DNA of 64,000 nt, from positions 14,843 through 78,842 of the forward strand of contig QHSA01000133.1 of NCBI GenBank assembly GCA_003220315.1, written 5' to 3'. Numbering within the stretch: position 1 is the stretch's first letter; every line of letters begins with the position of its first letter. This document shows positions 9,345-56,220 of this stretch, one piece after another. The position numbers and the translations under genes are program-made. The notes beneath the pieces are model-generated. The model had not been told where the DNA came from. It saw only the letters and a program-made list of their open reading frames with translations, and made no database searches. This stretch comes from Candidatus Rokuibacteriota bacterium. GTDB lineage: Bacteria > Methylomirabilota > Methylomirabilia > Rokubacteriales > CSP1-6.

Positions 9345-10505
9345 CTACTCCGACTTGAGCCAGTCGGTGAGCTGCTTGAAGCGGCCCCGCTCCACACGCA
9401 CCCAGACCGCCTGCTTTTGGGTCTCGTGGTCCGGGCCGATGGTGAGCGGCGGCAGGATCCCGCTCTCCCAGCGCTTGACGGACTGGAGGGCGGCGATCAA
9501 CGACTCGCGGGTCAGCCGGGCCCCCGCGCGCGTGGCGCCCTCCGCGAAGAGCATCGCGGCGAAGTAGCCCGCGAGGGAATACCGGTTGGGCTCGTTCCGC
9601 GGGAAGTAGTTCTGCATGTGCTCGCGGTAACGCCGCACGCCTGGCAGGTCCGAGGTGAGCGGGTCGGGCCAGAGCGACAGCCCCTCGACACCCTCGGCAG
9701 CGTCGCCGGCGAGCGAGAGATACCGCTCGTCGGTGAGCGGGCCGGTGGACACCATGAGCGTGTCGGTCCAGCCGATCTTCTGCCGCTCCCTGAGCGCCTG
9801 CGCGCCCGGGCCGGGTACGAGGACCAGGAAGGTCACCTCGGGCTTCGCGGTGTGGAGCTTGGCGATCTGGGCGCTCACGTCGGTGACGCCGCGCTTCACC
9901 GATTCGACCGCGAGCAGCCTGAGGCCGTGGCGCGCCAGGTCCTTCTCGAAGGCCGTGAGGAACGACTTGCCGTACTCGTCGTCCTGGTAAAGCGCGGCGA
10001 ACTTCCTGTACTTTCGCCGACCCACCAGATAGTCGATCATCATCCGTGACGAGCGGTCGCTCATCGTCATGCCCTGGAAGACCCAGTGCCGGCCGCGCGT
10101 GACGGTCGAGCTCTGGTACGGGAACAGGAGCGGGACACGGTTCTGCTCGAGGTACTCGAGCGTCGCCACGACCGGTGGGGCGCCCTGCGGGATGATGACC
10201 GCGAACACCTGGTCCTGCTCGACGAGCTTGCGTGTGTTTGCCACCGCGTCCTGCGGCTTGTAACCGTCGTCGTACCAGATCGTCCGCACCTTCCGGCCGT
10301 GGATGCCCCCGCCGTCGTTGACGGCCTTGAAGCCGAGATCCACCCCGAACTTCGTGATCTGCTCGCCCGTGAAGGCCAGCGGGCCCGAGAACGAGTTCGA
10401 GCCGCCGAGCAGGATCTCGGTGTCGGTGACGCCCTGCTCGGCGCGCGCCGGCGCCGCGACCATCACGACGAGGGCGAGCAGCGGAAGGAGCCATCCGGAT
10501 CTCAT
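9345..10505 (-). CDS. Branched-chain amino acid ABC transporter substrate-binding protein (paralog 2)
   Basis: Start ATG 10505 (MRSGWLLPLLALVVMVAAPARA), overlapped (ATGA) by the stop of the R1 mini-ORF; the ORF-track N-terminal extension is repeat-derived. Confidence 0.9.
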   Translation of the reverse strand: MRSGWLLPLLALVVMVAAPARAEQGVTDTEILLGGSNSFSGPLAFTGEQITKFGVDLGFKAVNDGGGIHGRKVRTIWYDDGYKPQDAVANTRKLVEQDQVFAVIIPQGAPPVVATLEYLEQNRVPLLFPYQSSTVTRGRHWVFQGMTMSDRSSRMMIDYLVGRRKYRKFAALYQDDEYGKSFLTAFEKDLARHGLRLLAVESVKRGVTDVSAQIAKLHTAKPEVTFLVLVPGPGAQALRERQKIGWTDTLMVSTGPLTDERYLSLAGDAAEGVEGLSLWPDPLTSDLPGVRRYREHMQNYFPRNEPNRYSLAGYFAAMLFAEGATRAGARLTRESLIAALQSVKRWESGILPPLTIGPDHETQKQAVWVRVERGRFKQLTDWLKSE

Positions 10506-10740
10506 GGTCGTTCTCCTTGTAGCGGGGTCCGCGAGCCCGGCGCCATCGGTGGGTGGCCTGAGACCAGGCGCGCCCCGGCTCCGGTCCCCCTGCCGCCGCT
10601 CATTCCAGTCCACGCCGCGAGCCCGGCGCCATCGGTGGGTGGCCTGAGACCAGGCGCGCCCCGGCTCCGGTCCCCCTGCCGCCGCTCATTCCAGTCCACG
10701 CCGCGAGCCCGGCGCCATCGGTGGGTGGCCTGCCCACCGT
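10502..10740 (-). repeat. R1-family tandem repeat (86-bp unit x ~2.35) forming chained mini-ORFs between livM and the SBP gene
   Basis: Units 10531-10616 and 10617-10702, plus a partial unit 10703-10732 that lies inside the livM 3' coding end. The livM TGA (10686-10688) overlaps ATG 10689 of a 28-codon mini-ORF (MSGGRGTGAGARLVSGHPPMAPGSRRGLE). Its TGA overlaps ATG 10603 of a 33-codon mini-ORF whose TGA (10502-10504) overlaps the SBP ATG 10505. Confidence 0.8.
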
Positions 10741-11651
10741 GTGCGGAGCCGCCGCACGGCACTCGCGATGCCGCCCGGCATGAACAGCATCGAGGCGATC
10801 AGGATCGCGCCAAAGATCAATGGGCGGTAGTTCTGGAAGCCCGCGAGGGAGTCGTTCAGGACCGTGAGCACCGCCGCGCCGGCCACCGAGCCAGGGACCG
10901 ATCCGAGGCCGCCGAGGATGATCATCGCCACGAAGTCCACCGACAGGAACACGTCGAAGGCGTCGGGCGAGAGGAAGCCGACGACGAAGGCGAAGAGCCC
11001 GCCGGCGACGCCCGTGTAGAGCGCCGAGATCGCGAACGCGAGCGTCTTGTACCGCGCCACGTGGATCCCGCTCGCCTGCGCCGCGACCTCGCTCTCGCGG
11101 AGCGCGAGGAGCGCGCGCCCGGTCCGCGTCCGCGCGAGGTTTCCGGCGGCCCACACCATCACCGCGCCCACCGCGAGGACCAGATAGTAGCGCGCCGTGT
11201 CGGTCGCGAGCACCCACGGCCCGAGGCGCGCGGCTGGGACCCGGAGCCCGTCGTTGCCGCGCGTGAGCCCGTCGAGGTTCAGGATCGCCTCGACGACGAC
11301 GAACCCGAAGGCGAGCGTCGCCATCGCGAGATAGAGGCCCTCGAGCCTGAGGCACGGCACCCCGAGCAGGAGTCCGACCGCCGCGGTGACGAGCGCCGCC
11401 GCGAGGAGCGCCACGACGACCGGGACGCCGGGCGAGCGCGTGGCCACGATCGCGGCGGTGTACGCGCCCACTGCGAGGAACCCCGCGTGGCCGAACGAGA
11501 GCTGGTTCGTGTACCCGGAGAGGAGGTTGAGCCCGATCGCCACGATCGCGTTGACGACGATGAGGCTCGCCAGGAAGACGAAGTAGCGCGGCGCCGCCCA
11601 CGGCCAGAGGAGCAGTCCCGCCGCGCCGATCGCCAGCGCGAGGAGCCGCAT
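10686..11651 (-). CDS. livM: Branched-chain amino acid ABC transporter permease LivM
   Basis: Start ATG 11651 (MRLLALAIGAAGLL) overlaps the TGA of livH (ATGA); LivM-type TM profile; the last ~18 codons are encoded by R1 repeat sequence. Confidence 0.85.
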   Translation of the reverse strand: MRLLALAIGAAGLLLWPWAAPRYFVFLASLIVVNAIVAIGLNLLSGYTNQLSFGHAGFLAVGAYTAAIVATRSPGVPVVVALLAAALVTAAVGLLLGVPCLRLEGLYLAMATLAFGFVVVEAILNLDGLTRGNDGLRVPAARLGPWVLATDTARYYLVLAVGAVMVWAAGNLARTRTGRALLALRESEVAAQASGIHVARYKTLAFAISALYTGVAGGLFAFVVGFLSPDAFDVFLSVDFVAMIILGGLGSVPGSVAGAAVLTVLNDSLAGFQNYRPLIFGAILIASMLFMPGGIASAVRRLRTRWAGHPPMAPGSRRGLE

Positions 11652-13014: not shown

Positions 13015-14120
13015 TGGATCGCCTTCCGCCACATCGGCGAGGCCCACCCGTCCCGGAGGAACGCAAGAATCTCGCGCCGGCTCAGGTCGCCGAGCCCCAG
13101 GTGCTCGAGCGCGCGGCCGCGGCCCGAGAGCTCGCGCCCGAGCAGCGCGCCGTACACGAGAAGGAGCCCCGTGATCGCGGGCGTCACCGCGCCCGCCGCC
13201 CGCGCGGCCGACTCGAGGAGCGCCAACCCGAGAACCGCGTCCTCGGTGACGTAGCGGTGCTCGAACGTGACGATCTCGCTCCAGAGGCCGCTCGCCACGA
13301 GTTTCGTCTTCGCCCCGGCGCCGTAGAGCCCCTCGGCCGCCCGCGTCTCGTCGTAGTACGTCGCGAGCTCGTAGTGGGGCGCCGCGTAGCCCCAGCCCCG
13401 GCGAGTCGCGACCCGCTCGGCGTCCACGGCGTCGATGAGCCGGCGCACGCTCGGCGTCGTGCCAGCCGCGTGGACGTCGAAGCTGCCACCGTCGATCGCG
13501 CCGGTATTCAGGAGAACGAGCGGGGGGTGGATCACGGGCCCGGCGTTGGTGAGCGCGACATCGAGGGAGTCCGCGCACGGGCGGACGGCCGGGAAGAGCT
13601 CGGCGAGCCGCGGCAAGACGCGCGGGCCCCGCGACGCGGGAAACACGCCGATCGGCAGGTTGGCGGCGCGCAGGGGCGCCTTGACGACCGCGGGCGCCGT
13701 CTTCCGCGTGAGATAGGGCAGCGTCCCGGTCTCGGCGAGGGCGAGCGGTAAGGGGCCGCCGGCGCGCGCAATCCCCCGCGCCATCGCGTAGCTACCGAGC
13801 GTTCCCGGTGTGAGCAGGATGATCTGTCGGTCGTTGAGACACGGCGCCAGGCGCTTGGCGAGCTCCTCGTGGCTCGTCGCGGGTAGCGGGACGATCAGGA
13901 CCTCCGCGCCCTCGACCGCCTCGCCGAGGTCGGTCGTGGCGCGCTCGAGCTGCGCCGTCCCGTGCCGCCCCTCGGCGTCGAGCGTGATCGTCGCGCGCTC
14001 CACGAGCGGGCCGAGCGCGTCCGCCGAGCGGCTCCAGAGCCTGACGCGGTGGCCGGCCAGCGCGAGATCGGCCGCCGTCGCGAAGCCACCATTGCCCGCG
14101 CCCAGGACTGCTAGCTTCAC
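13011..14120 (-). CDS. NAD/NADP-dependent octopine/nopaline (opine) dehydrogenase family oxidoreductase
   Basis: GTG 14120 gives MKLAVLGAGNGGFATAADLALAGHRV, a classic Rossmann N-terminus of the opine dehydrogenase family. The GTG is overlapped by the TGA of the R2 mini-ORF. Confidence 0.7.
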   Translation of the reverse strand: MKLAVLGAGNGGFATAADLALAGHRVRLWSRSADALGPLVERATITLDAEGRHGTAQLERATTDLGEAVEGAEVLIVPLPATSHEELAKRLAPCLNDRQIILLTPGTLGSYAMARGIARAGGPLPLALAETGTLPYLTRKTAPAVVKAPLRAANLPIGVFPASRGPRVLPRLAELFPAVRPCADSLDVALTNAGPVIHPPLVLLNTGAIDGGSFDVHAAGTTPSVRRLIDAVDAERVATRRGWGYAAPHYELATYYDETRAAEGLYGAGAKTKLVASGLWSEIVTFEHRYVTEDAVLGLALLESAARAAGAVTPAITGLLLVYGALLGRELSGRGRALEHLGLGDLSRREILAFLRDGWASPMWRKAIQ

Positions 14121-14228
14121 AGACTCGCCTCGCCTGTGGCTGCGGCTCGCACTGCCACGACGTTCATAAGCTCGCCTCGCACGGCGGGGCCCCAGCCCCA
14201 CGACGTGCTGCGGCTCGCACTGCCATCA
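14117..14228 (-). repeat. R2-family element forming two chained mini-ORFs (20 and 16 codons)
   Basis: The CoA-transferase TGA (14226-14228) overlaps ATG 14226 (TGATG). Mini-ORF1 MAVRAAARRGAGAPPCEASL ends with TGA 14164-14166 overlapping ATG 14167 of mini-ORF2 MNVVAVRAAATGEASL. Its TGA 14117-14119 overlaps the GTG 14120 of the next gene. Confidence 0.7.
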
Positions 14229-18399: not shown

Positions 18400-19995
18400 T
18401 CAGAACTTCACGGGCTCCTTGTGCTCCCCGAAGACGTCCTTCAGGGCGCGCGCGATCTCGCCGAGCGTCGCGTACGCCTTCACGGCCTCCACGATCGGGT
18501 CCATGAGATTGCCCGCGGCCCGCGCTTCGTCACGGAGGCGCGCGAGCGCGCGCGCCACGGCGCCCCCGTCCCGGTCCCGGCGAATCCGTTCGAGTCGTGC
18601 GATCTGGGCGGCGGCGACCTGCGGGTCGGAGGCGTACAGCTCGACCTCGCGGTCGGCCGCGGCGGGCGTGTCGCCGACGTGGCAGTTGGCGCCGACCTTC
18701 GGGATCTCACCGGAGGCGAGCTTCTGCTCGAAGCGGTACGCCTGGCGCGCGACCTCGGCCTGGAGGGCGCCGCTCTTCACGGCCTCGACGATGCCGCCCA
18801 TCCGTTCGACCCGGGCCATCTCCTCGAGGATCTCCGTCTCCATGGCGCTCGTCAGCGCCTCGACATAGTACGAGCCCCCGAGCGGGTCCACCGTGTCTGC
18901 CGCGCCGGACTCCTCGGCACAGATCTGCATGGTGCGGAGCGCGATGAGCTGCGCCTTCGCCGACGGGATCGTGTACGCCTCGTCGTAGGTCGGCAAGGCC
19001 ATGGTCTGCGCGCCGGCCAACGCCGCGGCGAGCGCGATGTACGCGCCCCGGACGATGTTGTTCTCGGGCTCCTGGACCACGAACGCCGAGCCGCCGCCCC
19101 CGATCAGCGTCCGAAACATCCACGACTTCGGATTCGTCGCGCCGAACCGCTCGCGCAGCATGCGCGCGTACAGGCGCCGGCCCGCGCGGAATTTCGCGAC
19201 CTCCTCGAAGATCTTCCCCCATGCCGTGAAGTTGAACGAGATCCGCGGGGCGAAATCGTCGACGGAGATCCCGCGCGCGAGCATGCGCTCGATGTACGCG
19301 GCCGCGATCAACAGCCCGTACGCCATCTCCTGCGCCGTCGTGCAGCCCGCCTCGCGGATGTGGTAGCCGCACACCGAGACCGGATTCGAGCGCGGATAAC
19401 GCTTCGCCGAGAACTCGACGAGGTCCGCCACGAGCCGCAGGGACGGCTCGACGGGGTAGATCCACGTGCCCCGCGCGACGAATTCCTTGAGGATGTCGTT
19501 CTGGGGTGTCGTGACGACCCGGTCGGCCGCGGCGCCCTGCTTCTCGGCGACGACGTAGTACATGGCCGTGATCGGCGCCGCCATCCCGTTGATCGTGAGG
19601 GAGACGCTGACGCGGTCGAGCGGAATGCCAGCGAACGCGTCCTCCATGTCGGCCAGCGTGTCGATCGCCATCCCGACCCGGCCCACCTCGCCCTCGGCGC
19701 GCGGGTCGTCGGAGTCGAGACCCAACTGAGTGGGCAGGTCGAAGGCGACGTTCAGGGCGTCCTGTCCGTGCGCCATCAAGTACTTGAATCGGCCATTCGT
19801 CTCCGTCGGTGTGCCGAAGCCGACGTACTGGCGCATCGTCCAGAGGCGCTCGCGGTACATCGTCGAGTGGATGCCCCGCGTGAACGGGTACTCGCCGGGG
19901 CGGCCGATGTCGCGCCCGACGTCGACGTCGGCCAGGTCCTCGGGCCCGTAGAGGGGCTTGATCGGAAAGCCCGCGTGCGTTCGTAGCTCCTTCAT
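18400..19995 (-). CDS. Methylmalonyl-CoA mutase family catalytic (substrate-binding) subunit
   Basis: 531 aa; MCM N-terminal TIM-barrel motifs (RGIHSTMYRERLWTMRQYVGFGT); lacks a B12 domain, which is supplied by the upstream gene. Confidence 0.9.
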   Translation of the reverse strand: MKELRTHAGFPIKPLYGPEDLADVDVGRDIGRPGEYPFTRGIHSTMYRERLWTMRQYVGFGTPTETNGRFKYLMAHGQDALNVAFDLPTQLGLDSDDPRAEGEVGRVGMAIDTLADMEDAFAGIPLDRVSVSLTINGMAAPITAMYYVVAEKQGAAADRVVTTPQNDILKEFVARGTWIYPVEPSLRLVADLVEFSAKRYPRSNPVSVCGYHIREAGCTTAQEMAYGLLIAAAYIERMLARGISVDDFAPRISFNFTAWGKIFEEVAKFRAGRRLYARMLRERFGATNPKSWMFRTLIGGGGSAFVVQEPENNIVRGAYIALAAALAGAQTMALPTYDEAYTIPSAKAQLIALRTMQICAEESGAADTVDPLGGSYYVEALTSAMETEILEEMARVERMGGIVEAVKSGALQAEVARQAYRFEQKLASGEIPKVGANCHVGDTPAAADREVELYASDPQVAAAQIARLERIRRDRDGGAVARALARLRDEARAAGNLMDPIVEAVKAYATLGEIARALKDVFGEHKEPVKF

Positions 19996-20378
19996 GTCTC
20001 CCTCGCCTCCTTCGTGAACGCGGCGACGATGTCCGGCAGCGGTGTGCCCATCGGGAACACGCGCGCGACGCCGAGCTTCCGGAGCTCCTCCACGTCGCGC
20101 GGCGGGATGATGCCGCCCACGACGACCCTGACCTCCCCGGCGCCGTGCGCCCGCAGCCCCTCGAGCACGCGGCGCGAGAGGAGCACGTGGGCGCCCGACA
20201 GCACCGAGAGCCCGACCACGTCTACGTCCTCCTGGATCGCCGCCCGCACGATCTCGTCCGGCGTCCGCTTGAGCCCCGAGTAGACGACCTCGACCCCCGC
20301 GTCGCGGAGCGCCTGCGCCACGACCTTCGCGCCGCGGTCGTGGCCGTCGAGCCCCGGCTTGGCGATCAGGACCTTCAC
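19992..20378 (-). CDS. Cobalamin (B12)-binding domain subunit of acyl-CoA mutase
   Basis: 128 aa; DGHDRG B12-binding motif; GTG start 20378 overlapped by the TGA of the R1 mini-ORF; its TGA overlaps the mutase ATG (ATGA). Confidence 0.9.
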   Translation of the reverse strand: MKVLIAKPGLDGHDRGAKVVAQALRDAGVEVVYSGLKRTPDEIVRAAIQEDVDVVGLSVLSGAHVLLSRRVLEGLRAHGAGEVRVVVGGIIPPRDVEELRKLGVARVFPMGTPLPDIVAAFTKEARET

Positions 20379-20652
20379 TGTAGCGAAGTCCGCGAGGCCG
20401 GCGCCATCGGTGGGTGGCCTGAGACCAGGCGCGACCCGGCTCCGGTCCCCATGTCGTGTCTCATTCCAACAGGGTCCGCGAGGCCGGCGCCAGCGGTGGG
20501 TGGCCGTCGGACTGACCGCCCTTCGAGCGCGGGCTTCGCCCGCGCAACCGATCCTGGGGGAGGCTCGGAGGGGGCCGTCGAGGCCCCCTTCGATGAGGTG
20601 GGTGGCCTGAGACCAGGCGCGACCCGGCTCCGGTCGTCCCGGCGCTATTCAT
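20375..20652 (-). repeat. R1-family element (two units, the distal one interrupted by a nested R3 element) forming 63- and 29-codon chained mini-ORFs
   Basis: ATG 20652 lies 2 codons before the metallophosphoesterase TAG (ATGAATAG). Mini-ORF1 reads through R1-partial, R3 and R1 to TGA 20461-20463, which overlaps ATG 20464 of mini-ORF2 (MRHDMGTGAGSRLVSGHPPMAPASRTSLQ). Its TGA 20375-20377 overlaps GTG 20378 of the B12 subunit. Confidence 0.75.
20496..20607. mobile_element. R3 MITE-like element (92 bp) with 10-bp direct target duplication GTGGGTGGCC, nested in R1
   Basis: Insert 20506-20597 flanked by GTGGGTGGCC at 20496-20505 and 20598-20607. Two internal hairpins (GCGCGGGC-TTC-GCCCGCGC; GGGGGCC-GTCGA-GGCCCCC). 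A near-identical copy (3 differences) sits at the same position of a diverged R1 at 27445-27556. Confidence 0.7.
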
Positions 20653-21124
20653 TCGGGAGCTCGAGGATGCGGCCCCGCACGCGCCCATCCTCGACGGTGA
20701 GTCGTCCCACTGCCACGGGAAGCTTGAAGCGGCGGGGGCCGGCGCTTCCCGGATTGAAAAACAGCACGCCGTCCCGCTCCTCCTGCCGCGGCTGGTGACT
20801 GTGGCCGGAAATGACCACGCCGAACCCCGCCGCGCGCGGGTCAAGGCCCAGCGCCGTCACGTCGTGCAGCACGTACAGGAGCACGCCCCCGATCTCGAGA
20901 ACCTGAGTGGACGGAACCTTCTCGGCCCACGCGCCGCGATCATTGTTGCCACGAACGGCCGTCACCGGCGCGATCGCGCCGAGTCGCTCCAGCACGTCCG
21001 GCGTGCCGATGTCCCCGGCGTGGACGATCGCATCGACGCCCCGGAGCGCCACGACCGCCTCGGGCCTCAACCGTCCGTGAGTGTCGGAGATAACGCCCAC
21101 CGATCGCACGCGCGAGCCGCTCAT
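20645..21124 (-). CDS. Metallophosphoesterase (YfcE/MJ0936 family)
   Basis: 159 aa from ATG 21124 (ATGA overlap with upstream DUF35 gene); GVISDTHG ... GDIG ... GNND ... GHSH motifs. Confidence 0.8.
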   Translation of the reverse strand: MSGSRVRSVGVISDTHGRLRPEAVVALRGVDAIVHAGDIGTPDVLERLGAIAPVTAVRGNNDRGAWAEKVPSTQVLEIGGVLLYVLHDVTALGLDPRAAGFGVVISGHSHQPRQEERDGVLFFNPGSAGPRRFKLPVAVGRLTVEDGRVRGRILELPNE

Positions 21125-21549
21125 GCCGGGGCGAACGCCGGCAGCCATCGGGCGTTGCCCTTGGGGTCGTCGGCGACGCGAAGCGGCGCGAGCCGGACGC
21201 GCTGGCCGATCCTGAGCGCCGCCGGGTCGGCGTCGACGAGGGCCGTGAAGACCCGATGGACGTCGACCTTCACGATCGCAAAGACGCGCGGCCCGTCGAA
21301 GCCCGCGGGAAGCCCCGCCTCCTGCAGCGTGAAGGCGTGGAGCGTTCCCTCGCCCGGGAGGTCCACCCATTCGAACCGGTCCGACGCGCACTCGCCGCAG
21401 AAGCCGCGGGGTGGCCACGCCGTCGTGCGGCAGTCGCGGCAGCGGGTGGTCATGAGCCGCCCCGACGCCAGGCGCGTGTAGAACTCGTGAAGCTTCGTGT
21501 GGTCCGCCGACTCCAGCGGGAAGGGGTCGACCGCGCGGAAATAGGTCAC
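21121..21549 (-). CDS. Zn-ribbon/OB-fold protein (DUF35 family, thiolase-associated)
   Basis: GTG 21549 (GTGA overlap); CRDCRTTAWPPRGFCGEC zinc ribbon followed by an OB fold; the family normally partners SCP2-type thiolases. Confidence 0.75.
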   Translation of the reverse strand: MTYFRAVDPFPLESADHTKLHEFYTRLASGRLMTTRCRDCRTTAWPPRGFCGECASDRFEWVDLPGEGTLHAFTLQEAGLPAGFDGPRVFAIVKVDVHRVFTALVDADPAALRIGQRVRLAPLRVADDPKGNARWLPAFAPA

Positions 21550-22645
21550 GCGCCGACCACCGGCCACTTCGACTCGATGGGGAGTCCCGCGCGCGCGATC
21601 TGCCGCCGGGCGAGCTCTTCCACACGTGCGTAGAGCGCCTGCTCGTCGAGCGTCGTGAGCCGCCCCTCGTCGAGGACGATCCGCCCGTCGATCAGCACGG
21701 TCCGCACACTCGCGCCCGTCGCCGCGTAGACGAGGTTGTTCAACGGATTGAGGAGCGGGCGCCACTCGGGAGTGTCCAGGTCGTAGAGCACCAGGTCGGC
21801 GCGCTTGCCCCGCTCGATCGAGCCGATCTCGCGCTCGAGCAAGAGCGCCGCGGCGCCGTGGAGCGTCGCCATCTCGAGGACGCGCTCGGGGCCCATCACG
21901 CCCACGTCGAGGCGCGCGTCCTTGGAGATCGTGGCGGTGAGGTACATGAGCCGCAGCATGTCGAAGTGGTTCGAGCCGTTCCCGCTGTCGCCCCCGAGCG
22001 AGACCGAGACGCCGGCGTCGAGCATCTCGGGGAACCGGCCGTGGGCGACGAGCCCCTTCGTGTGCTTGAGCGCCGCCGACGGGCAGTGAGAGACCTTCAC
22101 GCCACGCGGACCGCGGCGAGCATCTCCTCGTTCGCGCGGAGCGCGTCGGCCGTGGTCTGGCGCATCCGTCCGGATCCGCCCGCGAGGTCCCACGACCAGC
22201 GCCCGAGGATCGCGCGCATCCCGATCGCCTCGACCGCGTCGGCGACCGCCGCGACGTCGAAGAGCGTGCCCGCCTCACAGAAGGTCGTCGTCCCCGTGCG
22301 GATCATCTCGACGCACGCGAGCTGCGCGGAGACCTGCTCCTCCTCCGGGGTCATGACCGCGTAGAGCGGGATGAGCCAGTCGGGGAGGTAGCGGTCCACC
22401 GGGATGTCGTCGAGGAGGAGGCCGCGATTCAAGTGCTCCGAGAGGTGGACGTGCGTGTCGACGAAGCCGGGGAGCACGAGGCGTCGGCGACCGTCGATCA
22501 CCCGGTCGGGCGCACGCGGCGGCCGCACGTCGACGGCGGGGCCCACGTCCACGATGTCCCGGCCGTCCACGAGCACGGCGCCGTCGCGCAGGATGCGCCG
22601 CTCGCGGTCCACGGTGACGACGGTCGCGTGCTCGATGAGGATCAC
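21546..22645 (-). pseudogene. Amidohydrolase (chlorohydrolase / MTA-SAH deaminase family) disrupted by an internal ~75-aa deletion with frame change
   Basis: Frame A 22097-22645 encodes the N-terminal half, from the HxH metal site region (FVDTHVHLSE) to ...RANEEMLAAVRVA*. Frame B resumes at GTG 22100 with VKVSHCPSAALKHTKG (the HxPxSNxKL region) and continues to 21546. The segment that should carry two metal-ligand His motifs is absent. The fragment junction is a GTGA overlap. Confidence 0.5.
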
Positions 22646-23604
22646 TGGTACGCAGCGTCCTCTCGCACCCGCCTGAGCTGCCGGAGCAGCGCACGGACCT
22701 TGGCGGTCTCGAACGTCTCGCGCCGGTCGCCGGCGTAGTCGAAGAACCCGCGCCCCGTCTTCGGGCCGAGCTCTCGCCTCGCGATCTTCTCCTCGACCAG
22801 GCGCGCCGGCTTGAAGCGGTCGTCACCGAGCGCGTCGGCGAGGAAGCGGCTCGCACGGTGGAGGATGTCCACGCCGCCCCAGTCGATGAACTCGAAGATC
22901 CCGACCTGCGCGTAACGGAAGCCCATCCCCGCCCTGAACGCCCGGTCCACGTCCTCGGGCGACGCGACGCCCTCCTCGACGAGGCGGACCGCCTCGTTCA
23001 TGAGCAACGCCTGTAGCCGCGGCCCGATGAACCCCGGCGAGTCGGCGCACCGCACGGGGACCTTCCCGAGCGCCTCGAGGACCTCGATGGCGCGGTCGAC
23101 GACGGCGGCCGTGGTCGCCTGGCCGGCGACGACCTCCACGAGCGGGACGATGTGGGCGGGGTTGAGCCAGTGCGCGACGAGGAAGCGCTCCGGACGCTCT
23201 ACCGCGTCGGCGAGGTGCCTGGGCGCGATCGTCGAGCTCGTCGAGGCGATGATCGCCCCGGCGCCGACGCGGGTCGAGAGGCGCCCCAGCACCTCGCGCT
23301 TGAGGTCGAGCAGCTCCGGCAGCGCCTCCTGCACGAAAGCGCACGCGTCGAGGCCGTCGAGCCCCGTGCGGTCCTCGATCCGGTCGAGCGCCGACGCGAC
23401 GTCGCCGCCCGCGATCACACCCTCCTCGGTCATGAGCCGGAGGTCGCGGGTGATCTCGCGCCGCGCGTCGGCGAAGACGGCGCGCCGCTCCTCGGGCGTG
23501 CGGGCCTTGACGTCGACGAGGAGGACACGGCGCCCGCCCAAGGCGAAGGCGAGCGCGATCTGGCGCCCGATCCTCCCGGGGCCGAGAACCGCGACTGTAT
23601 TCAT
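22642..23604 (-). CDS. 3-hydroxyacyl-CoA dehydrogenase (NAD-binding, HBD/FadB-type)
   Basis: MNTVAVLGPGRIGRQIALAFALGG Rossmann N-terminus; C-terminal 3HCDH dimerisation domain; ATG 23604 is the last start of the R2 tandem array. Confidence 0.9.
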   Translation of the reverse strand: MNTVAVLGPGRIGRQIALAFALGGRRVLLVDVKARTPEERRAVFADARREITRDLRLMTEEGVIAGGDVASALDRIEDRTGLDGLDACAFVQEALPELLDLKREVLGRLSTRVGAGAIIASTSSTIAPRHLADAVERPERFLVAHWLNPAHIVPLVEVVAGQATTAAVVDRAIEVLEALGKVPVRCADSPGFIGPRLQALLMNEAVRLVEEGVASPEDVDRAFRAGMGFRYAQVGIFEFIDWGGVDILHRASRFLADALGDDRFKPARLVEEKIARRELGPKTGRGFFDYAGDRRETFETAKVRALLRQLRRVREDAAYQ

Positions 23605-23868
23605 AGACTCGCCTCGCCGGCGGCTGCGGCTCGTACGACCACGTTCATAGACTCGCCTCGCCGGCGGCTGCGGCTCGTACGACCACGCTCATAGACTCGC
23701 CTCGCCGACGGCTGCGGCTCGTACGACCACGTTCATAGACTCGCCTCGCCGACGGCTGCGGCTCGTACGACCACGTTCATAGACTCGCCTCGCCGGCGGC
23801 TGCGGCTCGTACGACCACGTTCATAGACTCGCCTCGCCGACGGCTGCGGCTCGTACGACCACGTTCAC
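23602..23868 (-). repeat. R2-family 44-bp tandem array (6 ATG units plus 1 GTG unit), each unit a 15-codon mini-ORF
   Basis: Unit CATAGACTCGCCTCGCCG(G/A)CGGCTGCGGCTCGTACGACCACG(T/C)T at 44-bp period, with start codons at 23604, 23648, 23692, 23736, 23780, 23824 (ATG) and 23868 (GTG). On the minus strand each unit reads (M/V)NVVVRAAA(A/V)GEASL-TGA, with the TGA overlapping the next ATG (ATGA). The thiolase TGA (23865-23867) overlaps the first GTG; the last TGA overlaps the dehydrogenase ATG. Confidence 0.85.
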
Positions 23869-26184: not shown

Positions 26185-27344
26185 CACGCGAACGCCTGAC
26201 CACGGTCCCAGTCGAGGTCGCGGTCGATCACGACGCGCAGGATCTCCGAGGTCCCGCCACCGGGCAAGAGGAAGCGCGCGTCACGGAAGTAGCGCTGGAT
26301 CGGGTACTCCATCGCGAGTCCGTACGAGGCGAAGATGCGCGCCGCCTCGTCCGTGACGCGCACCGCCATCTCCGACGCGAAGAGCTTCACCATCGCCGCC
26401 TCACGGGTGATCGCGCGTCCGGCGTCGAGCCGGGCCGCGGCCTGGTAGGTCATGAGCGTCGCCGCGTGGAGCCGGGTGAGCATGTCGGCGAGCTTGAAGC
26501 CGATCGCCTGGTGCTCGACGATCGGCTTCCCGAACGCGACCCGCTCCCGGGCGTAGGCGAGCGCGGCCGTGTACGCGGCGCGCGCGATCCCGACGGAGAT
26601 CGCCGCGGTCATCACCCGGATCTCCGAGAGGACGGACCCGATCTTCTCGACACCACCCGTTTCACCACCGAGGAGATACTCGGGAGGAACTTCCACGTCG
26701 TCGAGCCGGATCTCCCCCGTCACGGAACCACGCACCGCCATCTTGTCGATCGACTTCCCGAGCGCGATCCCGCGCATCGCCGAGCGGTCCAGGAGGAAGA
26801 GCGCGATGTTCTTCATGCCGCGCTCGGCAGAGGTCTTCGCCGCGACCGTCAGGACGTCGGCCACCGGCGCGTTGGTCACCCAGGTCTTGCCCCCGCGGAG
26901 CACCCAGCGGTCGCCGCGTCGCTCGGCGCGCGTGGTGATGTTGGCGACGTCGGAGCCGGCGCCGGGCTCGGTGAGCGCGAAGGTCGCGACCAGGTCGCCC
27001 CGGAGCGCGGGCACGAGGTACTTCCGGCGGAGCTCTTCGGTGCCGTACTTGTAGATGAAGTAGGTCCCCATCAGCGACTGCATGGCCACCGTCGCGGCCA
27101 CCGAGAGCGAGCCCCGGGCGAGCTCCTCGGCGAAGAGACAATAGGTGACCATGTCCGCGTCGGCGCCGCCGTACGCCGCCGGGTAGCGGAGACCGAGATA
27201 GCCGAGCTCGCCGAGGCGCTTGAACAGCGTCCACGGGAACTCCGCGCGCTCGTCGATCGCCTCTGCGGCCGGCACCACCTCGGCGTCGACGAGCCGCGCG
27301 ACCGCCTTGCGAAATTCTTCTTGCTCTGGCGTGAAGGCGATCAT
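26184..27344 (-). CDS. Acyl-CoA dehydrogenase
   Basis: ATG 27344 (MIAFTPEQEEF) overlapped by the TGA of the R1 mini-ORF; ACAD motifs throughout. Confidence 0.9.
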   Translation of the reverse strand: MIAFTPEQEEFRKAVARLVDAEVVPAAEAIDERAEFPWTLFKRLGELGYLGLRYPAAYGGADADMVTYCLFAEELARGSLSVAATVAMQSLMGTYFIYKYGTEELRRKYLVPALRGDLVATFALTEPGAGSDVANITTRAERRGDRWVLRGGKTWVTNAPVADVLTVAAKTSAERGMKNIALFLLDRSAMRGIALGKSIDKMAVRGSVTGEIRLDDVEVPPEYLLGGETGGVEKIGSVLSEIRVMTAAISVGIARAAYTAALAYARERVAFGKPIVEHQAIGFKLADMLTRLHAATLMTYQAAARLDAGRAITREAAMVKLFASEMAVRVTDEAARIFASYGLAMEYPIQRYFRDARFLLPGGGTSEILRVVIDRDLDWDRGQAFA

Positions 27345-27625
27345 TGTAACGGGGGCCGCGGGGCCGCCACACTCCGTGGGTGGCCTGAGACAAGGCGCGA
27401 CCCGGTTCCGTTCCGTAACGGGGGCCGCGGGGCCGCCACACTCCGTGGGTGGCCGTCGGACCGACCGCCCTTCGAGCGCGGGCTTCGCCCGCGCCACCGA
27501 TCCTGGGGGAGGCTCGGAGGGGGCCGTCGAGGCCCCCTTCGATGAGGTGGGGGGCCTGAGACGAGGTGCGACCCGGGCCCGTTCGGCACGCCGCCGCGTT
27601 TCATTCCACCGGGCGCGGCACTCAT
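27341..27625 (-). repeat. R1-family element (two units, the distal one carrying a nested R3) forming a 94-codon mini-ORF
   Basis: ATG 27625 overlaps the hyuB TGA (ATGA); the ORF reads through R1, R3 and R1 (…HLVSGPPPHRRGPRRPPPSLPQDRWRGRSPRSKGG…RLVSGHP…) to TGA 27341-27343, which overlaps the ACAD ATG 27344. Confidence 0.75.
27445..27556. mobile_element. R3 MITE-like element (92 bp) with 10-bp target duplication (GTGGGTGGCC / GTGGGGGGCC), nested in R1
   Basis: Insert 27455-27546; differs from the 20506-20597 copy at 3 positions, whereas the flanking R1 sequences differ extensively. Confidence 0.7.
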
Positions 27626-29427
27626 GACGTCTTCCGCTCCGCTCTCATCGCGCCGCGGAGCTCGCGCGTGGCGTGCTCGTCCACACGAAGGTCGACCCCC
27701 GTCCCCGCGATCACGACGCCGTAGTCCGCGCGCGCCGCCGCGATCGAGACGTAATCGTCCAGGACGTCCTCGAGCACGCGCCGGGGGTCGCGCTCGAGCG
27801 GGTCACCGTAGCCCCCGGCGCCGGGCTGCTGGAACGAGATGACGTCACCGAACGCGAACTCGCGAGAGGCCTTCCCGTGGACGAGCTGTTCGTCCGGGCC
27901 GGGATTGATCACCGTTCGGCCGAGCGTTCCCGGCCGGCCACCGAACAGGCCGTATGGCGCGAACGTCTGCCGGTCGGCGAGATTCGTGAGCTTGCCGTCG
28001 TCGGCGAGGAAGCGCATGTCGCGGCGGACGCCGCAGCCGCCCCGGAACTTCCCCGCGCCGGCGGAGTCACGGAGCAGCTCGAAGCGCTCGACGATGATCG
28101 GCAGGTTCGCCTCCTGCGCCTCGACGGGGATGTTCGAGGCGTTGAACGCCCACGCCATCGCCTCGCACCCGTCCCGCGTCGCGCGCGCGCCCGTGCCCGA
28201 GAGCACCAGCTCGTACGCGACGAAGCGGCGCCGACGCGCGCGGTCCGAGCCGCCGAAGGTCGGATTCGCCATGTGCGACGCGGCCGCCGCCACTCGGTCG
28301 GGCACCGCCCGCGCGAGCGCGCCGATCACCGACTCGAACGTGCGGTAGCAGATGATCGCGCGCGGCCCCCCGCCCGCCGGCGGCCGCGGGTTGAGGAACG
28401 ACCCCTCGGGCGCCGTCACGGTGATGGGGCGCAGCGCGCCGTCGTTCATCGGGCCGAACGGGTCGGTCAGGCACTTGACCGCGGCATACGAGTAGGAGCG
28501 CGTGTAGTTGATGTAGGAGTTCATGCCCGACGCGGTCTGCGGGCTCGAGCCCCCATAGTCGATCACCATGCCGTCGCCCGCGACCGTCACCGCGACGGCC
28601 ACGCGGAGCGGCGCGGTCCCCGGCCCCGAGTCGTCCATGAAGTCCTCGAACGTGTAGACGCCGTCCGGGACGGCCCGGATCGCGGCGCGCATGTTCGCCT
28701 CGGTCCGCTCGATGATCTCGTCCATCGCGCGGACGAGCAGGTCGCGGCCGTAGCGCGCGCCGAGCTCTTGGAGTCTCAGCTCCCCGACGCGCAACGCGCT
28801 CCGCTGGGCGCGCAGGTCGCCGAGGACCTTCTCGGGCGTGCGCGTGTTCGCGGCGATGATCCCGACGATCCCAGCGTCCTCCTCGTACGCCCTCCACACC
28901 TTGGTCGGCGGGATACGGAGCCCTTCCTGGAAGTAGTCGAAGATGCCCTCGACGCCCTGGCTGCCGGGGCGCTGGCCGCCGACGTCGGTGTGGTGGAGGA
29001 TGTTCACCGCGAAACCGACCAGCTGACCCTCGTGGAACGCGGGCTGCGTGACGAAGAAGTCCGGCAGGTGCCCCGAGCCGAGCAGCGGATCGTTCATGAG
29101 AATGGCATCGCCCGGACGCAGCGACTCGACGGGGTGCGCGGCGAGCGCGTTCTTGACGGCGACGGACATGGCCCCCATGTGCCCGGGACTGTACGGCCCC
29201 TGAGCGACCATGCGCCCCTCGGGGTCGAAGACCGCCACGGAGAAGTCCTGGCCCTCACGCGCCTGCTCGGAGTAGGCGGTCTTATGGACCGTCGTCCCGA
29301 TCTCGACCGCGATCGACTGGAGCGCGCCCCAGATGACGCCGAGGGTGATCGGGTCCGTTGTCGCGGAGGCGGCGAGGCCGGCGCACTCCGTAGGTGGCGT
29401 GCTGTGGGTGCGGTCTGGCTCCGTCAT
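27622..29427 (-). CDS. hyuB: Hydantoinase B / 5-oxoprolinase subunit (HyuB family)
   Basis: 601 aa from ATG 29427 (ATGA overlap with hyuA); DPITLGVIWGALQSI... HyuB N-terminal motif. The first ~20 codons (MTEPDRTHSTPPTECAGLAAS) are encoded by a partial R1 unit. Confidence 0.85.
   Translation of the reverse strand: MTEPDRTHSTPPTECAGLAASATTDPITLGVIWGALQSIAVEIGTTVHKTAYSEQAREGQDFSVAVFDPEGRMVAQGPYSPGHMGAMSVAVKNALAAHPVESLRPGDAILMNDPLLGSGHLPDFFVTQPAFHEGQLVGFAVNILHHTDVGGQRPGSQGVEGIFDYFQEGLRIPPTKVWRAYEEDAGIVGIIAANTRTPEKVLGDLRAQRSALRVGELRLQELGARYGRDLLVRAMDEIIERTEANMRAAIRAVPDGVYTFEDFMDDSGPGTAPLRVAVAVTVAGDGMVIDYGGSSPQTASGMNSYINYTRSYSYAAVKCLTDPFGPMNDGALRPITVTAPEGSFLNPRPPAGGGPRAIICYRTFESVIGALARAVPDRVAAAASHMANPTFGGSDRARRRRFVAYELVLSGTGARATRDGCEAMAWAFNASNIPVEAQEANLPIIVERFELLRDSAGAGKFRGGCGVRRDMRFLADDGKLTNLADRQTFAPYGLFGGRPGTLGRTVINPGPDEQLVHGKASREFAFGDVISFQQPGAGGYGDPLERDPRRVLEDVLDDYVSIAAARADYGVVIAGTGVDLRVDEHATRELRGAMRAERKTS
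29381..29427 (-). repeat. Partial R1 unit fused to the 5' end of hyuB
   Basis: GCCGGCGCACTCCGTAGGTGGC... encodes the PPTECAGLAA peptide shared with other R1 frames; ends with ...CATTCCA at the hyuA stop. Confidence 0.6.
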
Positions 29428-31487
29428 TCCAACTCCACCAGGAGACTCGCGTACTCGTCCACAGCCGCCGAGGCGCCGGGCGGAAGGACGGTCGTGGACT
29501 CGCGCTCCTCCACGATCGCCGGCCCCGTGAGGCGCGCCCCTGCCGCGAGCGCGTAGCGGTCGTAGACCGGCGTGTCCACGTAGCCGCGCGCCTCGGGAAA
29601 GTAGGCGCGACGGCTCCCCTTCACCGCGCGGCCACGGTCCTCGGTCTGCGCCTTCGCGAGCGCGATGCGGGGCGAGCCGCCGACCGCCGAGAGCTTCCAC
29701 GTGACGACCTCCACGGGCTCGCGCGGGTTCGCATAGCCGTAGCGGGCGGCGTAGACCTCGTCGAACGTCGCGCGCACCCGGGCGAGCGCGGCGGCGTCGA
29801 GCTCGCCCGACGGCACGGGAACGGTCAGCTCGTACCCCTGGCCCACGTAGCGCGCGTCGGCCGAGCGCGCCACGTGGATCTCACCGGCGACGGCGGACTC
29901 GCGGACGACCTCCGTCGCCTGCCGCGCCATCTCCGCGTACATCCGACCGAGCTGCGCGAGATCCACGGCGTCGAGCCGGCGGACGTAAGTGCGCGCCACG
30001 TCGAACCGGAGCTCCGCGGCCAGCAGGCCGATCGCGGCCGTGACCCCGGCGGCCGCGGGGAGAATCACGCGCGGGATGCCGAGCGCCTGGGCGAGTCGGC
30101 AGCCGTGCACGGGGCCCGAGCCGCCGAAGGCGACGAACGTGAGGTCGCGCGGGTCGCGGCCGCGCTCGATCGAGACCACGCGGGTCGCCAGCTCCATGTT
30201 GGTGGTGACGATCGCGTGGATCCCCCACGCCGCGTCCTCGAGCGACAGGCCGAGCGGCGCCGCGACCTTCGTCTCGATCGCCCGCGTCGCCGCCGCCGGC
30301 TCGAGCTTGACCGAGCCGCCCGCGAAGTAGTCGGGGTTGATATAGCCGAGCACCACGTTCGCGTCGGTGACCGTGGGCTCGACACCACCGCGCCCGTAGC
30401 AGACGGGCCCCGGCACCGACGAGGCGCTCTCCGGGCCCACGGCGATCACGCCGAGCCGCGCGCGGGCGATCGAGCCGCCGCCCGCACCGATCTCGACGAG
30501 GTCGATCGCCTGAATGTTCATCGGCAGGCCGCTGCCCGGGGCGTTGTTGACGCGGTGGAGCTCGAACGCCGTCGTCGTGGAGGGCCGCCCGCGCTCGACG
30601 AGTGCGAGCTTGGCGGTCGTGCCCCCCATGTCGAACGCGATCAGGTCGCGGTGGCCGGTGAGCTCGCCGTACGCCGCCGCCATCAGGGCGCCCGCGGCGG
30701 GACCCGACTCGATCATCCGCACGGGGTAGCGCTGCATCGCCTCCGCCGTCGCGACGCCGCCGGAGGACTGCATGACGAAGAGCCGGCCCCGGTAGCCGCG
30801 CTCGGCCAGGGCGGCGGCGAGCCCGCGCAGGTACTCGCGCACGGCCGTCATCACGTAAGCGTTGACCACGGTCGTCGAGGTCCGCTCGTATTCGCGGAAG
30901 GTCGGCGACACCTCGTGCGACATCGTCACCGTCACGTGCGGAGCCTCTTCTCCGACGATCTCCGCCAGGCGCCGCTCGTGGAGGGGGTTCAGGTACGCGT
31001 GCAGGAGGCAGATCGCGAGGGTCGTGACCTCGCGCGCGACGAGCTCGCGGACGGCCCGACGGGCGTCGGCCTCGTCGAGCGGGCTCCGCACCGAGCCGTC
31101 CGCCAGGACGCGCTCGGTCACCTCGCCGATCAACCGGCGAGGGATCAGCGGCGCGGGCTTCTCGATCTGGAGGTCGTAGACCTGGTAGCGCTTCTCGCGC
31201 CCGATCAGGAGCACGTCGCGGAAGCCCCGCGTGGTGAGGAGCCCGACGCCTCGCGCCTTGCGCTCGATGACGACATTGGAGCCGAGTGTCGTCCCGTGGA
31301 CCGCCTGGGCCACGTCGCGCCACGTGACACCGCTCCGGGCGACGAGCTCGTCGAGCCCCGCGAGGCAGGCCTCGGAGGGGTCCGGGTAGGTCGTCAGCCG
31401 CTTCGCGATGAGGAGCTCCCCCGACGGCGACTGCAGCACCAAGTCGGTGAACGTCCCCCCGACGTCGAACCCGATCCGGTAGGGCAT
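29424..31487 (-). CDS. hyuA: Hydantoinase A / 5-oxoprolinase subunit (HyuA family)
   Basis: 687 aa; MPYRIGFDVGGTFTD N-terminus; ATG 31487 overlaps the TAA of the R1 mini-ORF (TAATG). Confidence 0.9.
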   Translation of the reverse strand: MPYRIGFDVGGTFTDLVLQSPSGELLIAKRLTTYPDPSEACLAGLDELVARSGVTWRDVAQAVHGTTLGSNVVIERKARGVGLLTTRGFRDVLLIGREKRYQVYDLQIEKPAPLIPRRLIGEVTERVLADGSVRSPLDEADARRAVRELVAREVTTLAICLLHAYLNPLHERRLAEIVGEEAPHVTVTMSHEVSPTFREYERTSTTVVNAYVMTAVREYLRGLAAALAERGYRGRLFVMQSSGGVATAEAMQRYPVRMIESGPAAGALMAAAYGELTGHRDLIAFDMGGTTAKLALVERGRPSTTTAFELHRVNNAPGSGLPMNIQAIDLVEIGAGGGSIARARLGVIAVGPESASSVPGPVCYGRGGVEPTVTDANVVLGYINPDYFAGGSVKLEPAAATRAIETKVAAPLGLSLEDAAWGIHAIVTTNMELATRVVSIERGRDPRDLTFVAFGGSGPVHGCRLAQALGIPRVILPAAAGVTAAIGLLAAELRFDVARTYVRRLDAVDLAQLGRMYAEMARQATEVVRESAVAGEIHVARSADARYVGQGYELTVPVPSGELDAAALARVRATFDEVYAARYGYANPREPVEVVTWKLSAVGGSPRIALAKAQTEDRGRAVKGSRRAYFPEARGYVDTPVYDRYALAAGARLTGPAIVEERESTTVLPPGASAAVDEYASLLVELE

Positions 31488-31567
31488 TATTGGTGGCCTG
31501 AGACGAGGTGCGCCCCGGCTCCGTTCCGCCCGCCGCTTCCCATTCCAGCGAGCCGCAAGGCCGGCAT
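31487..31567 (-). repeat. Single R1 unit forming a 26-codon mini-ORF between the GntR gene and hyuA
   Basis: ATG 31567 lies 1 nt after the GntR TAG (31569-31571); MPALRLAGMGSGGRNGAGAHLVSGHQ-TAA, with the TAA overlapping the hyuA ATG. Confidence 0.65.
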
Positions 31568-38597: not shown

Positions 38598-38690
38598 TGC
38601 GTCGGAATCACCGCTGTTCGAGCGCCGGCTCCGCCGGCGCAACCGATCCGGGGGGAGGCATCGGAAGGGGGGCGAAGCCCCCCTCCGAGT
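38598..38690. repeat. R3-like hairpin element at convergent gene ends (probable bidirectional terminator)
   Basis: GTCGGAATCACCGCTGTTCGAGCGCCGGCTCCGCCGGCGCAACCGATCCGGGGGGAGGCATCGGAAGGGGGGCGAAGCCCCCCTCCGAG; same architecture as R3, with compensatory stem changes (GCGCCGGC/GCCGGCGC versus GCGCGGGC/GCCCGCGC). Confidence 0.6.
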
Positions 38691-56090: not shown

Positions 56091-56220
56091 GTCGGAGAAA
56101 GGGCTGTCGACCGGGGTTCGAGCGCCGGCTTTGCCGGCGCACCGATTCCTCGGGGGTTCGCTCCCTCTCGGGAGCGCTCCCCCGGCCTCGGAGGGGGCCG
56201 TCGCGCCCTTAGGGCGCGCC
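56091..56220. repeat. R3-like hairpin element (extended variant)
   Basis: GTCGGAGAAAGGGCTGTCGACCGGGGTTCGAGCGCCGGCTTTGCCGGCGCACCGATTCC...CTCGGAGGGGGCCGTCGCGCCCTTAGGGCGCGCC; shares the TTCGAGCGCCGGC-loop-GCCGGCGC-ACCGAT core and GGAGGGGGCC hairpin with other R3 copies. Lies in frame with the downstream gene, giving a spurious N-terminal extension. Confidence 0.55.

Follow-up and report, generated by a model that had tools for sequence, protein, structure and literature searches.

What becomes of translational coupling when a spacer of 280 nucleotides (nt) separates two genes of an operon that is otherwise linked throughout by short overlaps of stop and start codons? The question is raised by the junction between a metallophosphoesterase gene and the gene for the B12-binding small subunit of a methylmalonyl-CoA-mutase-type enzyme in a Candidatus Rokuibacteriota bacterium (assembly GCA_003220315.1). 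We analysed a 64,000-nt stretch of contig QHSA01000133.1 (positions 14,843 to 78,842), hereafter the window; all coordinates are those of the window, the junction is read on the minus strand, and numbers of the form L143 denote related or metagenome loci. Only in this spacer do two small open reading frames (ORFs) replace the direct overlap. They are formed by two units of a repeat, R1, the first of which is interrupted by a copy of another repeat, R3. Judged by its sequence and distribution, R1 is probably an intercistronic repeat of Candidatus Rokubacteria of the type of the interspersed repetitive units of mycobacteria (MIRUs), acting as a translational relay. The junction is made up of the following features, in which the two small ORFs are called relay ORFs 1 and 2.

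20645..21124, minus strand: calcineurin-like metallophosphoesterase gene, 159 amino acids (aa), starting at ATG 21124 (ORF list; Pfam Metallophos_2, PF12850, E 5e-35)
20461..20652, minus strand: relay ORF 1, 63 codons plus TGA (192 nt; translation)
20597..20654, minus strand: 5' half of R1 unit 1, with boundary GAATGAATAG, core GGAGCCGGGTCGCGCCTGGTCTCAGGCC and the left target copy GGCCACCCACC (nhmmer match and core alignment)
20607-20597, minus strand: left 11-nt target copy GGCCACCCACC (coordinates)
20506..20596, minus strand: R3, 91 nt, nested in R1 unit 1 (repeat family D9/D10, fold, identity to the other nested copies)
20495..20505, minus strand: right 11-nt target copy GGCCACCCACC (coordinates)
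20461..20494, minus strand: 3' half of R1 unit 1, whose terminal TTGGAATGA doubles as the 5' boundary of unit 2
20375..20464, minus strand: R1 unit 2, which is relay ORF 2, 29 codons plus TGA in the canonical R1 frame (best nhmmer match of the family, E 1e-23)
19992..20378, minus strand: gene for the B12-binding small subunit, 128 aa (Pfam PF02310, E 9e-26)

The metallophosphoesterase gene ends with CTC CCG AAT GAA TAG, the stop being TAG 20647-20645, and its last codons and this stop fall in the R1 5' boundary variant GAATGAATAG. Inside the boundary, within ATGAATAG, lies ATG 20652-20650, 8 nt short of where the upstream gene ends. From there relay ORF 1 (peptide MNSAGTTGAGSRLVSGHPPHRRGPRRPPPSLPQDRLRGRSPRSKGGQSDGHPPLAPASRTLLE) takes in the R1 5' half, the entire R3 and the 3' half of R1. 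It closes at TGA 20463-20461, and this stop overlaps ATG 20464 (ATGA) of relay ORF 2 (peptide MRHDMGTGAGSRLVSGHPPMAPASRTSLQ). The TGA of this second ORF, 20377-20375, in turn overlaps GTG 20378 (GTGA) of the B12-subunit gene, upstream of which no Shine-Dalgarno motif is present. The arrangement of relay ORF 1 is identical in the orthologous contigs L046 and L073. An assembly artefact was ruled out, as the arrangement recurs in independent metagenome-assembled genomes (MAGs) and metagenome assemblies.

A chain of small ORFs leading from the metallophosphoesterase stop to the B12-subunit start through a pair of R1 units with a nested R3 had been described in the original prediction, which was made from the sequence alone. 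Reading and translating the minus strand showed the chain to be real, and all coordinates given for 20375-20652 proved correct. The chain is unbroken because R3 adds exactly 34 stop-free codons: 91 nt of insert and 11 nt of target duplication amount to 102 nt, or 3 x 34. The insertion is thus frame-preserving, as had been claimed; the division into 92 nt and a 10-bp duplication that accompanied the claim is equivalent to the one measured here.

The R1 unit is 86 nt long (remainder 2 modulo 3) and carries ATGA at both ends, its consensus in the element sense being nTGGAATGAGAAGCGACATGCGGAACGGAGCCGGGTCGCACCTCGTCTCAGGCCACCCACCGA..GCGCCGGCCTCGCGGCCCCCGCTACAATGA. At the 5' end an ATG overlaps a TGA (GGAATGA), the frame that follows is free of stops, and the terminal TGA overlaps the next start (CAATGA or CAGTGA). 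The canonical frame reads M-R-S-D-M-R-N-G-A-G-S-H-L-V-S-G-H-P-P-x-A-P-x-S-R-x-P-L-Q and stop. The length of this frame and part of its sequence (G-A-G-S-H/R-L-V-S-G-H-P) are kept across many loci, the conserved portion being a nucleotide core of about 35 nt. A repeat search found both R1 and R3 to be multi-copy in the window, where the R1 loci all lie on the gene strand and are tied to their neighbours by ATGA, GTGA or TAATG. When one genome per prokaryotic species was scanned for the exact core pattern, it was found only in Candidatus Rokubacteria/Rokuibacteriota/Methylomirabilia (Methylomirabilota) MAGs, apart from one spurious partial match, and it occurs in at least 120 soil metagenome contigs. 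A profile search (nhmmer) of the window and 139 loci, 1.07 Mb together, returned 271 R1 matches in 158 arrays of 1-4 units; merging of orthologous contigs leaves 61 distinct loci. A genome holds dozens of copies at unrelated operon junctions. A single open frame of this length is unremarkable. The informative traits are ATGA ends inherent in the unit, its length class and its orientation; since the start and stop overlaps belong to the repeat itself and recur at dozens of independent loci, the pattern is, at the level of the family, far beyond chance.

For orientation, a codon-usage model was trained on five confident genes of the window and then used to decide which strand of the 240-nt flanks is coding. 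Among the 61 loci, R1 is sense to the genes at 48 (at 27 of them on both sides) and antisense at 4, two of these strong and two weak; one locus is a divergent leader and one an operon end. By our own arithmetic, the probability of 48 against 4 under equal odds is of the order of 1e-10. In each of the 33 arrays flanked on both sides by sense-coding sequence, ORFs followed one another without a break when we walked from the upstream stop to the downstream gene. A strict chain, in which every junction is an overlap of -4 or -1, was present in 21 of 30 arrays tested, and in 3 of 30 when the arrays were reverse-complemented.

The way in which single units end follows the same pattern. A -4 or -1 stop/start overlap is found at 48 of 70 unit endings (37 last units with TGA over ATG, GTG or TTG, 2 with a one-base overlap and 9 internal units ending on the next ATGA), and a further 9 are in-frame fusions, 7 to the next unit and 2 to the downstream gene. 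Nine endings were classed as other, five of them at contig ends. Unit spacings of 83, 86, 89, 143 and 188 nt (remainder 2) lead to a stop at the TGA of the next ATGA. Frames continue in phase at 84, 87 and 135 nt (remainder 0), and two spacings of 85 nt (remainder 1) lead to a stop at the TAG of ATGA(A/C)TAG, with an overlap of 8 nt. A boundary of this last type also ends the metallophosphoesterase gene, and it provides one frame with a start and both other frames with a stop (ATGAATAG). Every frame that enters R1 would therefore appear to be productive: the canonical one would lead to the downstream start, that of the upstream gene to the ATGA of the unit, and the third in phase into the downstream gene. 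The third outcome is seen in fusions at L017, L019, L135 and a hyuB-like gene of the window.

Insert lengths were tabulated modulo 3 in R1 copies with and without inserts, a census that the original prediction had proposed as a check. No insert is present in 132 units, and all genuine nested inserts and internal deletions are multiples of three:

R3: +102 nt, 3 loci
R4, another nested element: +48 nt, about 5 loci (L013, L025, L047, L008, L011)
Other inserts and internal changes: +96 nt (L004), +162 nt (L053), +9 nt (L034), +3 nt (L032) and -42 nt (L121)

Raw lengths of 57, 66, 67, 80 and 131 nt were rejected as nested inserts, being tandem sub-units or rearranged R1 on inspection; those of 66, 67 and 131 nt are tandem sub-units at one leader locus, and that of 80 nt (L105) is a duplicated sub-unit. 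A further 48 R1 5' halves for which no 3' half had been called were inspected in case broken units were hidden among them; most proved to belong to ordinary units whose 3' half has diverged, or to sit at the end of a contig.

The genes that R1 leads into differ from others in their start regions. None of 32 genes starting at an R1-terminal ATGA or GTGA has a Shine-Dalgarno motif (GGAG, GAGG or AGGA at -20 to -4), whereas GGAGGAG precedes the gene that follows an antisense array (L134) and GGAG-type motifs precede genes that follow repeat-free spacers (L144, and the solo R3 loci L025 and L007).

The history of the B12 junction can be read from five relatives of the B12 subunit, of 83-91% identity, which were compared together with their upstream DNA:

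L143: the ChsH2-like gene ends CCG TCG TGA, with the GTG of the B12 gene overlapping; a repeat-free, direct GTGA overlap
L144: a 10-nt spacer with GGAG before the B12 gene
L141: one degenerate R1, with a 29-codon ORF from ATGA to GTGA
L140 (1470-1505): the same metallophosphoesterase neighbour; a 25-nt spacer with a 10-codon ORF, MSRSRPVAEV and stop, bounded by ATGA on either side
Window and its orthologues L046 and L073: R1 interrupted by R3, followed by R1

What stays constant is the start codon of the B12 gene and the stop that overlaps it, while the sequence in front varies. The repeat-free site shows that the ancestral state, as far as these sequences record it, was a direct GTGA overlap (L143). 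The small ORF of L140 may be the footprint of an R1 loss. The metallophosphoesterase gene itself (20645-22278 region of the window), between the ChsH2-like and B12 genes, occurs in the window and L140 and is missing from L141-L144; the L140 orthologue has another C-terminus, ...LPSGT and stop.

R3 copies fall into two settings, inside R1 and alone:

20506-20596, 27454-27544 and L042: R3 nested in R1
38600-38690 and 56110-56155 of the window, L007, L025, L029, L030, L055, L056, L080, L089 and L117: solo R3 (11 copies)

The element contains two GC-rich hairpins, GGGGGCC-TCGAC-GGCCCCC and GCGCGGGC-GAA-GCCCGCGC, closed by an outer TCGA/TCGA stem. The consensus fold of 15 distinct copies reaches -31.7 kcal/mol (RNAalifold), with a TCGR/TCGA closing stem. 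The pairs 25/54 and 90/100, one in each hairpin, switch between CG and GC in 5 of the 15 copies, which amounts to only about two independent compensatory switches. The nested copies are mutually 96-98% identical, while the R1 halves around them are only 62-74% identical; copying of the composite as a unit was rejected on these figures. They always occupy the same target with the 11-nt duplication GGCCACCCACC, which points to three recent, site-specific insertions of R3 into R1. Nested R3 has no stop codon in any sense frame and reads TCA where the solo copies have a stop. All 11 solo copies have one orientation and start at most 5 nt after a stop, which is TAA or TAG and mostly takes the form CGCTA(A/G). 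They lie between convergent genes (38600-38690 of the window) and also between co-directional genes, the next gene having its own Shine-Dalgarno motif. Unlike the nested copies, they have no obvious target duplication. In a genome of 72% GC, TGA would be expected to be the commonest stop. R3 may supply the stop codon of the gene before it, or use that codon as its target.

The overlap rule is shared by R2, a 44-nt tandem repeat unrelated to R1 in sequence, which lies at 23604-23868 on the minus strand between the stop of a thiolase gene and the start of a 3-hydroxyacyl-CoA dehydrogenase gene. GTGA or ATGA recurs every 44 nt (23868, 23824, 23780, 23736, 23692, 23648 and 23604), and 44 leaves remainder 2 modulo 3, with six serial ORFs of 15 codons (V/MNVVVRAAAxGEASL and stop) as the result. 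The unit opens with codons (MNVV) similar to those at the beginning of the downstream gene (MNTVAV). A single R2 copy at 14120-14167 ends in GTGA on the start of another dehydrogenase gene.

From these regularities we infer that the relay is followed by translating ribosomes and that it is this which preserves the arrangement. A ribosome finishing the upstream gene would reinitiate at the R1 ATG, translate about 29 codons into a peptide that is functionless in itself, terminate, and reinitiate at the next unit or at the downstream gene. Coupling that once took place by direct ATGA or GTGA overlap would in this way be carried over inserted DNA, and R1 could thereby persist and expand in operons at small cost. 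R3, which is usually found at gene ends after stops, has inserted here into the R1 target GGCCACCCACC and adds its 34 codons to the frame. The arrangement would be maintained by selection for coupling, along with a preference for inserting at start codons.

A number of observations weigh against such a relay. When arrays were dinucleotide-shuffled with junction bases and length kept, 22 of 30 still gave a complete chain and 11.8 of 30 (about 39%) a strict one. Open frames are thus cheap in DNA of 71.6% GC, because shuffles that keep junctions and length still yield chains; this null is too lenient to decide the matter, and the reverse-complement control and the match between spacing and boundary are more informative. 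Part of the regularity could come from an insertion-site preference for ATGA/GTGA junctions and not from selection for coupling. The frame argument from R3 concerns one fixed insert length, the 102 nt being element length plus target duplication, and three insertions are not three independent tests of frame selection. Judging by its predicted stability, the R3 fold could hinder the passage of ribosomes rather than help it. The gene calls in the flanks come from the simple codon-usage model and not from curated annotation. There are also exceptions, namely the two strong antisense arrays, the operon-end copy and the leader locus with sub-units of 66/67 nt. Finally, variability at the three codon positions among 20 R1 units is 0.187, 0.206 and 0.167, which shows no periodicity. 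The R1 peptides are not selected as proteins, because codon periodicity is lacking; this fits a pure ribosome-delivery role and is equally compatible with no translation at all.

The flat codon-position test also bears on the idea that the 63-aa and 29-aa products are functional small proteins. The frame length and partial sequence conserved across many loci could be taken to favour it. Yet the conservation is at the nucleotide level with no excess at third positions, dozens of copies per genome sit at unrelated junctions, the same DNA is read in other frames where it is fused to genes (L005, L019 and 29.4 kb of the window), and neither peptide matches any Pfam family. Functional small proteins are accordingly disfavoured by the codon test and the empty Pfam result, and we consider them exceedingly improbable. 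A more serious challenge is that R1 and R3 are selfish, untranslated miniature mobile elements that target ATGA/GTGA junctions (R1) or GGCCACCCACC (R3). The ORFs would then be by-products of target duplication and of the scarcity of stops at 72% GC, and the downstream genes would start independently, with no Shine-Dalgarno motif. The missing periodicity and the strict chains among the shuffles agree with this, as do the R1 core, conserved at the nucleotide level as a recognition site would be, and the three independent R3 insertions at one site with a clean 11-nt duplication. A target preference alone, however, leaves unexplained the roughly 12:1 strand bias. Selfish insertion also gives no reason for the chain-keeping boundary found with each of the remainders 0, 1 and 2 among the length variants, for indel lengths that are all divisible by three, or for an unrelated 44-nt repeat that follows the same rule; and it is at odds with the contrast between R1-fed genes, none of 32 with a Shine-Dalgarno motif, and the genes after repeat-free spacers or an antisense array, which have one. 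We regard it as unlikely.

A role at the level of RNA, resembling that of repetitive extragenic palindromic sequences and bacterial interspersed mosaic elements (REP/BIME), would rest mainly on the R3 hairpins. These might act in mRNA processing, 3'-end stabilisation, partial termination or as an internal promoter and so tune the ratio of metallophosphoesterase to mutase, the ORFs being irrelevant. The conserved R3 fold with its compensatory pairs and the position of all 11 solo copies directly after stops at gene ends, in one orientation, speak for it, and the MIRU spacer of senX3-regX3 has been reported to drive independent downstream expression (PMC4213456). R1, though, which makes up the bulk of the spacer and of the family, has an RNAalifold consensus of only -6.2 kcal/mol with 0 compensatory pairs, and a conserved RNA structure for R1 was rejected on that basis. 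The fold of the whole spacer (z = -1.8 against shuffles) is driven by R3. A scan of 20250-20800 found no sigma-70-like promoter and no intrinsic terminator; Rfam gave 0 matches at gathering thresholds in the whole window, and a permissive search of 20250-20800 gave only a chance-level match (E 0.56). The frame regularities are left unexplained by such a role, which we hold to be very unlikely. It does not exclude the translational relay, since translation through R3 could modulate R3 folding.

The remaining R1 copies of the window, and the gene that continues the overlap chain beyond the B12 subunit, are as follows.

18400..19995, minus strand: mutase large subunit, next in the overlap chain (Pfam MM_CoA_mutase, E 1e-187)
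10502..10752, minus strand: R1 array with a partial unit fused to the C-terminus of a permease and two full 86-nt units (nhmmer, translation)
27341..27625, minus strand: second R1 interrupted by R3, with a further R1 unit (repeat search, translation)
31478..31565, minus strand: single truncated R1 unit, a 26-codon ORF ending in TAATG on the hyuA start
29364-29435 (29.4 kb), gene strand: degenerate R1 copy inside the N-terminus of the hyuB-like gene (MTEPDRTHSTPPTECAGLAASATT-DPITL...)

On either side of the junction the operon is joined by ordinary overlaps, the stop of the B12-subunit gene overlapping the large-subunit ATG (ATGA 19995-19992) and the ATG of the metallophosphoesterase gene (ATGA 21124-21121) overlapping the TGA of the preceding ChsH2-like gene. 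The frames of the 10.5-kb array end at TGA 10688-10686, TGA 10602-10600 and TGA 10504-10502, the last of which overlaps the downstream ATG 10505. At 27341-27625 a single 94-codon ORF leads from ATGA on the upstream stop to ATGA on the start of an acyl-CoA dehydrogenase gene, with R3 at the identical R1 site and in the same frame as at the B12 junction. Copy number varies between relatives: the 10-kb array has a partial and 2 units where L013 has a partial and 1 unit with R4, the single truncated unit at 31 kb corresponds to 2 units in L002, and the 27-kb locus differs from L112, which has one unit fewer, and from L135, which has an internal deletion.

R1 remnants are fused in frame to the N-termini of downstream genes, with another frame of the element in use, in the hyuB-like gene of the window, at L019 5100-5200, in a short-chain dehydrogenase/reductase (SDR) gene at L017 and at L135. 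At these N-termini repeat DNA is, to judge from the reading frames, being absorbed into coding sequence. R1-like segments also lie in frame within genes: in the linker of an EamA-like transporter (L005 6152-6239) and in a variable loop of a hyuA-like protein (L019 4821-4887), which is about 18 residues longer there than in the hyuA of the window.

R4 is a 48-nt element, GACTCACGCAGGCTCGCCTCGCGCGTCGGACGCGCTGCGGCTTCGCAC, which lies in R1 a few bases from the R3 target (L004, L008, L011, L013, L025, L047, L053). It is at times tandem-duplicated (96 nt), always keeps the R1 frame, and contains a CGCGTC/GACGCG palindrome. The arrays that are clearly antisense to both flanking genes are at L036 10669 and L134 3759. 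The leader or divergent-promoter locus (L029 4948; L037, L083, L105, L118, L124, L131) holds tandem R1 sub-units of 66 or 67 nt, the number of which varies between samples; it is not intercistronic, and frames are not kept there.

A bolder view would be that Rokubacteria carry a whole system of frame-aware intercistronic repeats (R1 and R2, with nested R3 and R4). A ribosome arriving in any frame would be stopped and restarted (ATGA, ATGAATAG) or read through, operons would be stretched by hundreds of nt with up to six reinitiations while coupling is kept, and the R3 fold within the relay frame would give an attenuator-like control of expression ratios. This we find distinctly doubtful. If the relay proposed for R1 is translated, the loci offer natural constructs for measuring the efficiency of reinitiation over consecutive short ORFs with no Shine-Dalgarno motif. 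If the relay reading is true, the MIRU strategy would not be confined to mycobacteria, an uncultured soil phylum unrelated to them having come to it as well, and with more than one family of repeats. In the annotation of MAGs, R1-type repeats yield spurious small genes and N- or C-terminal extensions; peptides encoded by the repeats are exemplified by GAGSRLVSGHPP... and MNVVVRAAAAGEASL (R1 and R2). In public data, homologues of the B12 subunit (128 aa) are annotated with lengths of 136 to 218 aa, and the longer calls may or may not include the repeat. R1 repeats are also possible markers, in the manner of variable number tandem repeats (VNTRs), for typing Rokubacteria strains in metagenomes.

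Among known systems, R3 resembles a miniature inverted-repeat transposable element (MITE) in being small, non-coding and multi-copy, with near-identical copies and a target-site duplication. Its ends were read and have no terminal inverted repeats, and R1 shows no inverted ends in its alignment fold. A parent insertion sequence was not identified for R3 or R1, no transposase search having been made. Elements of the REP/BIME class are associated with RAYT (IS200/IS605-like) transposases and insert without target duplication. R3 is like them in being short, GC-rich and stably folded, in lying just 3' of stops, including those of convergent genes, and in its compensatory stem changes. It differs in the 11-nt target duplication of the copies nested in R1, in a three-helix fold in place of a single imperfect palindrome, and in an orientation that is fixed relative to the upstream gene; R1 itself lacks palindromic structure.

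The closest likeness that we can draw is to the MIRUs. According to PMC12548453, which cites Supply 1997, these are mobile repeats that insert at start codons and carry an internal ORF coupled at -4 nt. In the senX3-regX3 spacer the units measure 77 bp and 53 bp and their number varies between strains, and this is the spacer for which independent regX3 expression has been reported (PMC4213456). MIRUs (53 and 77 bp), R1 (86 nt) and R2 (44 nt) are all short direct repeats of remainder 2 modulo 3, often in tandem, located between operon genes on the gene strand, with an internal ORF tied to its neighbours by overlaps of -4 nt, its start with a stop and its stop with a start, and a copy number that differs between strains. 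The proposed role is likewise that of keeping translational coupling and making insertion cheap. R1 differs in its host, which is Rokubacteria/Methylomirabilota and not the M. tuberculosis complex and M. leprae; in the much higher local density of R1 and R2 (five R1 and two R2 loci in 64 kb); in the nesting of R3 and R4 in frame within R1; in the boundary ATGAATAG, which combines a start with stops in both other frames; and in that at least two unrelated families obey the rule in one genome. The limited literature searched contained nothing relevant on Rokubacteria repeats or on MIRU-like elements outside mycobacteria. The core idea, the MIRU architecture, is already published; the present case is more elaborate in its nested in-frame elements, the three-frame boundary variant, the presence of two or more families per genome and the high density. 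In the size of the repeat, its place in operons, its strand, the overlapping ORF and the variation in copy number R1 agrees with MIRUs; as the likeness is one of architecture and the host phylum differs, we treat R1 as a new, MIRU-like family and do not file it in the MIRU sequence family.

A further parallel is provided by natural leader ORFs and by the engineered 'bicistronic design' (PMC12548453, section 11), in which a short functionless ORF ends on the start of the real gene and supplies it with ribosomes. R1 is similar in that its short ORF ends on the start codon of the downstream gene. It is different in that the coupling ORF is carried here by an expandable repeat, with up to six such ORFs in series.

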